Positions 463 through 1,659 of a DNA stretch of 13,532 nucleotides are shown here, one piece after another (position 1 is the first letter of the stretch; every line of letters starts with the position of its first letter). Made by a program: the position numbers and the translations under genes. Location: IMG/VR virus record IMGVR_UViG_2778261085_000011, positions 1-13,532 of that record. One strand, given 5' to 3'. Source of the DNA: a virus (lineage: Duplodnaviria > Heunggongvirae > Uroviricota > Caudoviricetes). The notes beneath the pieces were generated by a model. The model was given only the letters and a program-made list of their open reading frames with translations. It was not told where the DNA came from and did not search any database.

Positions 463-920
463 GCTTCCTCCTTGCGCTATAAATACATTATAAACCGACA
501 CAAACCGATACAAACACCCTAAAAATGCTGATAAGCAGGGATAAGGATTATCACCATATTTTAACTATCCGCCATGAAGCTGGTGGATGTTTTTCTATGC
601 AGATTTGCATAGTTTCAAATGATGCTGCTGGATGATCACGGATAACCCGTTATGGGAATCCCCATATCGGCATCATGCCAACCAGCGTGACGCATTTTTT
701 TATTTCGCGGGTGTAAAAATTTGACGAGGCGGGAGGTCCCATAAGCAATGGGGGTAGGGATTCCGATCCCCCTCCTGAATGCAATTTTTCGTATATATAC
801 AAAAAGTGCGGGTTATCTTCGCGTGCTAAGTATTTTTTATTATTTAATATCAATGCGTTGAAAAATATCGTGTTTAAATATCAGCCAAAACGTAACCCGT
901 AAGACATTCAAAATAACCCG

Positions 921-927
921 CCCCCCC
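921..927. repeat. Homopolymeric C7 tract
   Basis: cccgccccccc read directly; lies in a region with no convincing ORF. Confidence 0.9.
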
Positions 928-1233
928 AATAACCCACAAACGCATCAGGAAAGTGGGGTCAGTGATGCCACCGAACGGCTGAATAGGGTAACGTTCTGTT
1001 GCCTGGTTGCAGTTTGCGGATCAGCAATACTGACGCGCTTAGTTGTATGTGGCTGTGCGTCCACCAGCTACGCCGGAACGGGGTATTCCGTTTCAACGGA
1101 ACAGGTATGACGAACATGATCGCATCTTCTCCCGAAAACGGGTTTTCCTGTTTCGGGAAAATGGACACATGAAGCGGCGCGACGATTTTCACCATTCAGA
1201 TTCTGGCGGGTGAGTTTTTCAACTTCCATCGAT

Positions 1234-1241
1234 GGGGGGGG
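1234..1241. repeat. Homopolymeric G8 tract
   Basis: gatggggggggattc read directly. Confidence 0.9.
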
Positions 1242-1494
1242 ATTCTGGAACAATCAACGGGTTACGCCTTACCAGCAAAAAAGCACATCAACTGTAACGG
1301 AAATCCCTATGGTTGCTGGTGGGTTGCATCACCATCATGGTGATGATGCAGTGAATGTAAAGATTACTTAGGTTGGGGGCGTAACTCATTGTCATTTTTT
1401 GAGCAAACTGGGAATCTCCGGTCTGGTTACTCTGTAACCAAGTCAATTTTATTTACTCTGTTGTGAGGGACTATAAGACCCGCGCAAAATCTGC

Positions 1495-1546
1495 CCAGCC
1501 AGCCAGCCAGCCAGCCAGCCAGCCAGCCAGCCAGCCAGCCAGCCAG
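1495..1546. repeat. Tetranucleotide microsatellite (CCAG)13
   Basis: Thirteen perfect tandem CCAG units read directly, ending in ccgg; intergenic, downstream of the PerC-like gene. Confidence 0.95.
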
Positions 1547-1659
1547 CCGGAACGGTTGAACAGGGTGGCTATGGGTCACTCTGTTGTGCGTTACTAGCGT
1601 GATCCCGGTAGGGTGTGACTATCTTTCAGATAGTCGGTTGCCTGGTTACACGAAAAAAT

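Follow-up and report, generated by a model that had tools for sequence, protein, structure and literature searches.

Why should a compact phage satellite carry a 1.2-kb interval without a convincing gene, and why should that interval hold three simple-sequence tracts? This question was examined for positions 463–1659 of a 13,532-nucleotide stretch of viral DNA (IMG/VR record IMGVR_UViG_2778261085_000011), hereafter the window. A sequence-only reading had reported that the interval lacks a convincing open reading frame (ORF) and carries (CCAG)13, G8, and C7 tracts, and had offered phase variation, altered spacing of regulatory elements, a decayed gene, a structured non-coding RNA, or an island boundary as explanations. 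We consider a different explanation likely, namely that 463–1659 is the cis-acting non-coding end module of a satellite of the phage-inducible chromosomal island (PICI) type, integrated at tRNA-Pro (yejO/yejM) in Escherichia coli.

Simple-sequence tracts and coding potential

Tandem Repeats Finder (TRF) identified a perfect period-4 array of 13.5 CCAG copies at 1495–1548, and a regular-expression search located 13 complete units at 1495–1546, G8 at 1234–1241, and C7 at 921–927. These two homopolymers are the sole G/C runs of 7 or more within the 13.5-kb window, and the length of the CCAG array is far beyond chance. A scan of 556 kb of related loci for at least 4 tetranucleotide or 6 dinucleotide units found just two microsatellites, both in this region: the CCAG array and a (TA)n run. 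The CCAG repeat is rare for E. coli, as the sequence-only reading had held for tetranucleotide repeats in general. The interval lies between a Panacea-domain gene (1–462) and a PerC gene (1660–1962), both on the minus strand, again as described from the sequence.

The longest ORF in 463–1659 encodes 78 amino acids (aa; 959–1195, minus strand). Nine ORFs of 44–78 aa from the interval had no genuine family match in Pfam or PHROGs; the single Pfam match, to ‘PT repeat’, was a low-complexity artifact of the translated microsatellite. Among homologues of the interval, ORF positions, frames, and lengths varied even between close relatives, no consistent frame was found, and 1-bp indels were tolerated. 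Rfam gave no family within the interval at gathering thresholds and, with E values up to 10, returned only a microRNA model that matched the repeat itself. A tRNA/tmRNA scan of the window found none. Promoter-like matches were fewer than in shuffled sequences, and the terminator scan yielded only weak terminator-like hairpins.

A PICI-type satellite and its proposed end module

The window encodes a tyrosine integrase (12291–13532), AlpA (11570–11776), an AAA_25/RepA-type helicase (6807–8213), DUF4222, SSB, and ProQ/FinO proteins, two PerC proteins, and a Nu1-like fragment of a small terminase subunit (TerS; 2970–3248, minus strand) that corresponds to residues 1–93 of a 200-aa protein in relatives. 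C4-type and isrK RNAs were detected with Rfam. Neither a capsid gene nor a large terminase (TerL) gene was found among the window genes. With an integrase, AlpA, a pri/rep gene with adjacent iterons, and no virion structural genes, the window is by its gene content a PICI-type phage satellite. Related E. coli islands have the same gene order and lie between yejO and tRNA-Pro/yejM. An identical Panacea protein occurs in the same context in ten NCBI E. coli assemblies, and the host is therefore E. coli.

Sequence corresponding to ~625–1659 of the window recurs at 80–99% identity in 282 of 5426 complete E. coli genomes, where annotation nearly always leaves it blank. The majority of the 282 have the module directly at the end of the island away from the integrase, and the islands that bear it occupy four insertion sites (yejO, thiM, clpS, and yifB). 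In the lineage of the window, a Panacea module has been inserted between the non-coding module and the attachment (att) end, so that 463–565 belongs to the 5′ region of the Panacea gene. This segment is common only to relatives with the Panacea module, and it may have a promoter role or an integrase-arm role. The island boundary that the sequence-only reading had envisaged here lies elsewhere: the attachment end lies past the Panacea module, off the left edge of the window, and the att-proximal arm repeats (CGTGTAGCT) and the tRNA-Pro duplication fall outside the window.

When one genome per species was scanned with 18-mers, the only matches were chance ones in unrelated taxa; the module is absent from these species-representative genomes. 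A plasmid search returned one 10.8-kb E. coli circle and 40 Piscirickettsia plasmids; the two that were inspected were prophage- or satellite-like and had only the cos core in common with the window. The E. coli circle (L010; NZ_CP148328.1, deposited as a ‘plasmid’) carries the same cos arm together with capsid/protease, tail-assembly, and DUF1441 genes, and looks like an excised capsid-forming satellite.

A predicted phage-type cos site

Positions 696–762 match the annotated cos site of the Stx2e phage phiP27 (83.8% identity over 68 bp, E = 3e-9), and the 10-nt phiP27 cos decamer GGGGCGGGCG corresponds to GAGGCGGGAG at 726–735. A flanking-motif scan returned 32 IMG/VR contigs. Every one of the 23 phage-type loci (phiP27 and 22 IMG/VR contigs) had the cos motif in the short gap that separates HNH from terS, even where its TerS shared only 42–60% identity with the phiP27 protein. 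Where capsid-forming PICIs have HNH, P27-type TerS, and TerL genes of their own, the motif stands at the end of the island, and its orientation with respect to these genes is the same. By homology, 696–762 is a cos site of the phage type, in the HNH/P27-terminase class, and a terminase is predicted to cleave it at 726–735 to give cohesive ends. No account of the cos region of capsid-forming PICIs turned up in our literature searches.

One related island (L002) has a second copy of the cos motif at ~11600, ~5.5 kb from the first, which recalls the two cos sites of EcCICFT073.

Chi sites around cos

The window contains 15 copies of the Chi octamer GCTGGTGG, compared with 0.42 ± 0.70 in shuffled sequences. 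Chi density was 0.6–1.8 per kb in satellites of this family, against 0.47 in the host flank and 0.38 in phage loci, and the positions of Chi relative to cosN are conserved across the satellite family. By the orientation rule of established RecBCD biology, the Chi sites at −147 (plus strand) and +335 (minus strand) from cosN face so that RecBCD entering at either cos end would read them, and they may protect those ends. The literature searches also yielded no report of Chi enrichment in phage satellites.

Two loci, L062 (E. coli C5; ~1760–1800) and L019, lack both cosN and the adjacent iteron block. The junction in each is exactly one CCACCAGC (Chi) octamer, as would be left if recombination between the two direct Chi copies at −48 and +335 had deleted the intervening DNA.

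An origin-like iteron block beside cos

To the right of cos, relatives carry TTTTTCG(TA)nCAAAAC, three tandem copies of GCGGGTTAT, a 75-bp AT-rich spacer that includes a match to the integration host factor (IHF) consensus, and three inverted copies, TAACCCGC, with 21-bp spacing. The 3 + 3 iterons are invariant even in loci only 74% identical overall. Related loci L029, L041, and L028 have identical iterons in an identical layout directly 3′ of a DUF927 rep gene, the canonical position of a PICI origin, and we therefore interpret the cos-adjacent block as an origin of one Rep specificity kept beside cos in islands that have other Reps. Rep and IHF are predicted to bind it. The rep-adjacent origin of L001 shares the lead-in TTTTTCG(TA)nCAAAAC and has other iterons (GTTGTCCCA).

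In the window, the block is decayed. A 20-bp deletion leaves one left iteron, a deletion of ~6 bp in the iteron spacer produced the C7 run, and two of the six iterons are intact. At least five iterons of another type (CTCCCCACTTT) form two clusters at 6597–6809, between the helicase gene and a 267-aa ORF, and this region is probably the island's own replication origin.

The (TA)n run of the lead-in (792–799 in the window) varies from 4 to 8 units among relatives and is a second slippage-prone site of the module.

Hairpin cassettes and the G8 tract

Positions 945–1659 form a mosaic. Recombination among satellites and capsid-forming PICIs has reassorted its sub-segments independently, and wherever other PICIs or capsid-forming PICIs carry them, they occupy the space from the last gene to cos. 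The unit that recurs consists of a short hairpin, an A-tract, and then ATCAA-NNNN-TTA, which fits the IHF consensus WATCAANNNNTTR. That consensus has four matches in the window against 0.68 expected, and two of the four are within 463–1659. The hairpin CCNCC-AAT-GGNGG has six pairs, was 96% paired over 13 sequences, and had two pairs changed on both sides; the window has three extra G in its 3′ arm, which create G8. The next 60 nt hardly vary within the family, and in the window alone a change of GT to CC breaks the TAACG/CGTTA stem. Judged against relatives, both C7 and G8 are lineage-specific lesions, one in the iteron spacer and the other in a conserved hairpin.

Both strands folded better than shuffled sequences (z = −2.9 and −4.6), without discriminating between the strands, and the conserved hairpins contained mismatches of both the G-U and the C-A type, so that a transcribed strand cannot be called. 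The hairpins in 945–1659 are real and may act as RNA or as DNA; the cassettes are probably architectural or terminator-like. The hairpin closest to perC (1617–1635) also occurs beside perC-like regions of enterohemorrhagic E. coli strains.

Two paralogous copies of a 94-aa gene are present at 2522–2803 and 3766–4044, both on the minus strand. Capsid-forming PICIs have this gene in last position, next to the non-coding cassette array, and in the window an IHF-consensus cassette (2509–2521) abuts the stop codon of the first copy. The position of this cassette suggests that perC and a 96-aa gene were inserted into the cassette array.

Length variation of the tracts

Comparing copy number across strains, as the sequence-only reading had advised, showed that tract lengths vary. 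Both flanks are covered in 28 complete genomes, of which 25 carry (CCAG)2 and three carry 9, 11, and 11 copies. A metagenome contig with 8 copies has a different flanking haplotype, and the expansion therefore arose at least twice. Copy numbers seen in relatives overall were 2, 8, 9, 10, 11, 12, 13, 15, and 19.

Within the lineage, NCBI E. coli assemblies were compared with window positions 1–2365. One (L069) showed no difference. The others differed in the tracts only: C7 to C8 in L063, a C tract lengthened to about 12 in L064, G8 to G7 together with CCAG 13 to 15 in L065, CCAG 13 to 19 in L067, and CCAG 13 to 10 in L070. Since the tracts are the only differences among these otherwise identical 2.4-kb sequences, they mutate much faster than single bases. 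Slipped-strand length change is real and fast, which bears out the view of all three tracts as slippage substrates (CCAG 10/13/15/19, G 7/8, and C 7/8/about 12). Two further assemblies (L068 and L071) are identical to the window up to ~1305 and then continue with the 2-copy haplotype; the recombination breakpoint is within 1265–1306, just 5′ of the Chi site at 1315–1322. Literature searches found no description of this (CCAG)n repeat.

Length change at high frequency is the part of the phase-variation proposal that stands. Functional phase variation is unsupported: no tract lies in a conserved ORF or in a promoter spacer, and nothing shows the tracts switching a gene. The CCAG array is located 3′ of perC and ~1 kb upstream of the Panacea gene. 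Repeat number altering the spacing of regulatory elements, as had been suggested, did not hold up either, no convincing promoter being found to bracket any tract. The sole nearby promoter-like match (9/12) has its −35 element at the repeat edge, and its −35/−10 spacing excludes the repeat and so is unaffected by copy number. A regulatory effect of the tracts on the perC 3′ end or on mobilization stays conceivable.

Proposed organization and alternative explanations

As the cis-acting end module of a satellite, 463–1659 would work as follows. The terminase of a helper phage, phiP27-like or HK97-like (we take HK97 to be a related phage with HNH and P27-family terminase genes), or that of a capsid-forming PICI, would cut at cosN (726–735). 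Chi sites within about 150–330 bp on each side of cosN would stop RecBCD entering at the cos ends. The adjacent iteron block would be an element kept invariant in relatives and left to degenerate in the window, where a different Rep would use its own iterons at 6597–6809. About 700 bp of shuffled cassettes with hairpins and IHF-consensus matches would follow this block, and (CCAG)13 would descend from an ancestral (CCAG)2 that expanded within an inter-cassette spacer, the expanded array slipping at a rate far above that of point substitution. The tracts are read as hypermutable by-products under relaxed constraint and not as parts of genes, and their length changes presumably have no phenotype. 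Relaxed constraint is suggested because G8 and C7 sit in elements that are otherwise damaged in this lineage, in which TerS is truncated too. A more elaborate version seems to us rather improbable: through the orphan origin-like block beside cos and the shared cos arm, co-resident capsid-forming PICIs would supply the Rep that replicates capsid-less PICIs of this family in trans and the terminase that packages them, making the latter ‘satellites of satellites’, with the tracts stochastically tuning or disabling mobilization within a clone.

Several points weigh against the end-module explanation. Cleavage at 726–735 and packaging of the island are predicted from homology, and one base of the cosN decamer in the window deviates from the family consensus. 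IHF binding is predicted from consensus matches, and the role given to the cassettes in 945–1659 is provisional. The origin-like block adjoins cos even where the island's Rep uses other iterons, and the explanation does not account for its function there. Assembly error could contribute to the homopolymer differences seen between short-read assemblies, although it is unlikely to produce changes of 3–6 tetranucleotide units. Given the truncated TerS, the decayed iterons, and the deviating base in cosN, the window copy may itself be immobile or defective.

Four other explanations were weighed. The block at 785–940 might be, instead of an origin, a cosB-like array of sites for a small terminase or Rpp-type protein around an IHF bend, giving the island its own packaging specificity. 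The block always abuts cosN, its inverted repeats stand on either side of an IHF consensus match as in the lambda R3-I1-R2 arrangement, many such islands encode a Nu1-like TerS, and TerS and the block are both damaged in the window; moreover, EcCICFT073 has a satellite-specific cosB read by Rpp-TerS (PMC6739421). However, the same iterons, 21-bp spacing, and lead-in make up the rep-adjacent origin of L029, L041, and L028; capsid-forming PICIs whose sole TerS is of the P27 type, with no Nu1-like gene, keep the block intact; and it lies on the HNH side of cosN, opposite the phage terS side where cosB presumably is. We regard this explanation as unlikely. It also seems improbable that 945–1659 encodes one or more structured non-coding RNAs, such as a long perC 3′ untranslated region (UTR) or an anti-helper small RNA. 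Several hairpins show compensatory changes, the folding of both strands exceeds that of shuffles, and in the G8 helix, read as the plus strand, five U-G cells stand against one C-A cell. Over all helices, though, wobble-type mismatches occur on both strands and permit no strand call; no Rfam family for a known non-coding RNA appeared even at E values up to 10, and no convincing promoter or terminator pair was found in the interval. The cassettes reshuffle independently, unlike a single folded RNA, and the most conserved 60 nt are invariant, so that covariation is not possible there.

A functional contingency locus, in which tract lengths would stochastically switch or tune the stability of the perC 3′ UTR, read-through, site spacing, or packaging or replication competence, we hold to be a little less probable still. 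It would agree with the tracts being the only differences among otherwise identical isolates, with the repeated origin of the CCAG expansion, and with an array that follows the perC stop codon by ~110 nt on the transcribed strand. Yet no ORF with a ribosome-binding site or conservation crosses any tract, no promoter has a tract between −35 and −10, the 25 complete genomes with 2 copies show that long arrays are not needed for function, and the damage around G8 and C7 points to relaxed constraint. Least credible, and close to being dismissed, is that 463–1659 is the remains of one or more decayed protein genes, the frameshift-prone former gene of the sequence-only reading. In a few genomes, the Prokaryotic Genome Annotation Pipeline places a hypothetical protein at some point within the region, and decay elsewhere in the lineage is seen in the truncated TerS. 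Against this stand the shifting frames and the lack of family matches described above, from a search that covered Pfam, PHROGs, and ORF conservation and did not include a frameshift-tolerant blastx against the full protein database. The region is also conserved as non-coding DNA in 282 genomes, and what is conserved in it consists of repeats, palindromes, and matches to consensus sites. What the sequence-only reading missed is that the interval can be aligned to an element of known kind, the cos module of a PICI.

Other features of the window

Coordinates of the features assigned within 463–1659 are given in Table 1.

Table 1. Features assigned within positions 463–1659 of the window.
Feature	Position	Strand	Basis or remarks
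Panacea gene 5′ region	463–565	−	Read from sequence; AGGAGG ribosome-binding site 467–472, TATAAT match 487–492
10-bp direct repeats AAACCGAYAC	492–515		TRF; in Panacea 5′ region
Left cos arm (phage terS side)	566–695		Kept in satellites 74–86% identical overall
Chi	579–586	+	Octamer scan; left cos arm
Palindrome CTATGCA-GATT-TGCATAG	595–612		Left cos arm
Inverted repeat	~645–672		Left cos arm; arms co-vary between relatives
Predicted cos core	696–762		phiP27 homology; cosN equivalent GAGGCGGGAG at 726–735
Origin-like block, decayed	785–940		Lead-in TTTTTCG(TA)4CAAAA; layout shared with relatives
Lone left iteron GCGGGTTAT	808–816		Iteron block
IHF consensus match	848–860		Consensus scan; AT-rich spacer
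Damaged inverted iteron TAACCCGT	893–900		Iteron block
Damaged inverted iteron TAACCCG	914–920		Iteron block; with ~6-bp deletion
Damaged inverted iteron TAACCCAC	930–937		Iteron block
Mosaic hairpin cassettes	945–1225		Independent recombination of sub-segments
Chi	1061–1068	−	Octamer scan; within 945–1225
Hairpin CCNCC-AAT-GGNGG	1226–1241		3′ arm expanded to G8 at 1234–1241
Near-invariant core	1247–1322		Common to capsid-forming PICIs; IHF consensus AATCAACGGGTTA at 1252–1264, TAACG/CGTTA hairpin, Chi
Chi	1315–1322	+	Octamer scan; within 1247–1322
Palindrome, 13-nt arms TGCATCACCATCA / TGGTGATGATGCA	1325–1350		
Hairpin GGTTAC-TCT-GTAACC	1424–1440		Compensatory variant GGTTGC-TTT-GCAACC in relatives
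Hairpin GACTATCT-TTC-AGATAGTC	1617–1635		25 nt past the perC stop codon

The truncated TerS remnant is the DNA-binding half of the protein and recalls the TerS-mimic Rpp proteins of other PICIs. An 805-aa ORF (9148–11565, minus strand) traverses the C4 (9391–9478) and isrK (9500–9576) RNA genes. Its C-terminus matches the Ash and Icd-like families, and its N-terminal ~660 aa had no match in Pfam, PADLOC, or NCBIfam. At this position relatives have only a 190-aa Icd-like gene and YlcI/YnfO genes. Searches of the neighboring unknown ORFs against PADLOC and NCBIfam added nothing beyond the Icd-like C-terminus of the 805-aa ORF.

Comparison with known systems

The seemingly empty stretch, left blank by annotation in hundreds of E. 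coli genomes, becomes interpretable as a cis-acting module. Its CCAG array is one of few truly hypervariable E. coli tetranucleotide repeats (2 to 19 units) and a possible marker for fine-scale typing. Two testable questions are raised: why the same origin-like block stands beside cos in satellites with different Reps, and whether capsid-less PICIs exploit capsid-forming ones.

Simple-sequence contingency loci are familiar from Haemophilus and Neisseria, CTGG/CCAG is a classic slippage motif of E. coli, and the (CTGG)3 of lacI is a frameshift hotspot. The CCAG array resembles these in gaining and losing tetranucleotide units at high frequency; unlike contingency loci, it lies outside any ORF and not between promoter elements, and has no linked phenotype.

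PICIs of the cos type are established in Gram-negative bacteria, EcCICFT073 being an example (Fillol-Salom 2018, PMC6092414; 2019, PMC6739421). The window shares with them an island of 13–15 kb, int, alpA, pri/rep with an iteron origin, PerC, the lack of capsid genes, and a helper-type cos in non-coding DNA. In contrast to EcCICFT073, its cos resembles that of phiP27 (HNH plus P27-family terminase) and not those of lambda or phi80, and it is flanked by an additional origin-like iteron block and ~700 bp of hairpin cassettes. The likeness to phiP27 (84% over 68 bp) includes the annotated 10-nt decamer and the ATTTCGCGGGTGTAAAAATTTGAC flank. In phiP27 and related phages, however, cos occupies a gap of ~100 bp between HNH and terS, whereas in the window it is near the island end and neither gene is present. 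Capsid-forming PICIs (Alqurainy et al., bioRxiv 10.1101/2022.09.08.507074) have the cos arm, iteron block, and hairpin cassettes at 80–86% identity at the same island end, but the window lacks their HNH, P27-type TerS, TerL, and capsid genes. In design, the block at 785–940 is like the origins of Staphylococcus aureus pathogenicity islands and PICIs, with iterons around an AT-rich region 3′ of rep; it differs in being detached from rep, beside cos, and decayed in the window. The very high Chi density (15 in 13.5 kb) recalls the Chi-rich lambdoid phages that depend on host RecBCD (reviewed in PMC8791490), from which the window differs in being a satellite with conserved, correctly oriented Chi sites on both sides of cosN. 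The interval is thus of a familiar kind, a PICI's non-coding control region with its cos site, and its less familiar features are an orphan origin-like block beside cos, Chi sites flanking cos, and a tetranucleotide repeat of 2–19 copies that is rare for E. coli.

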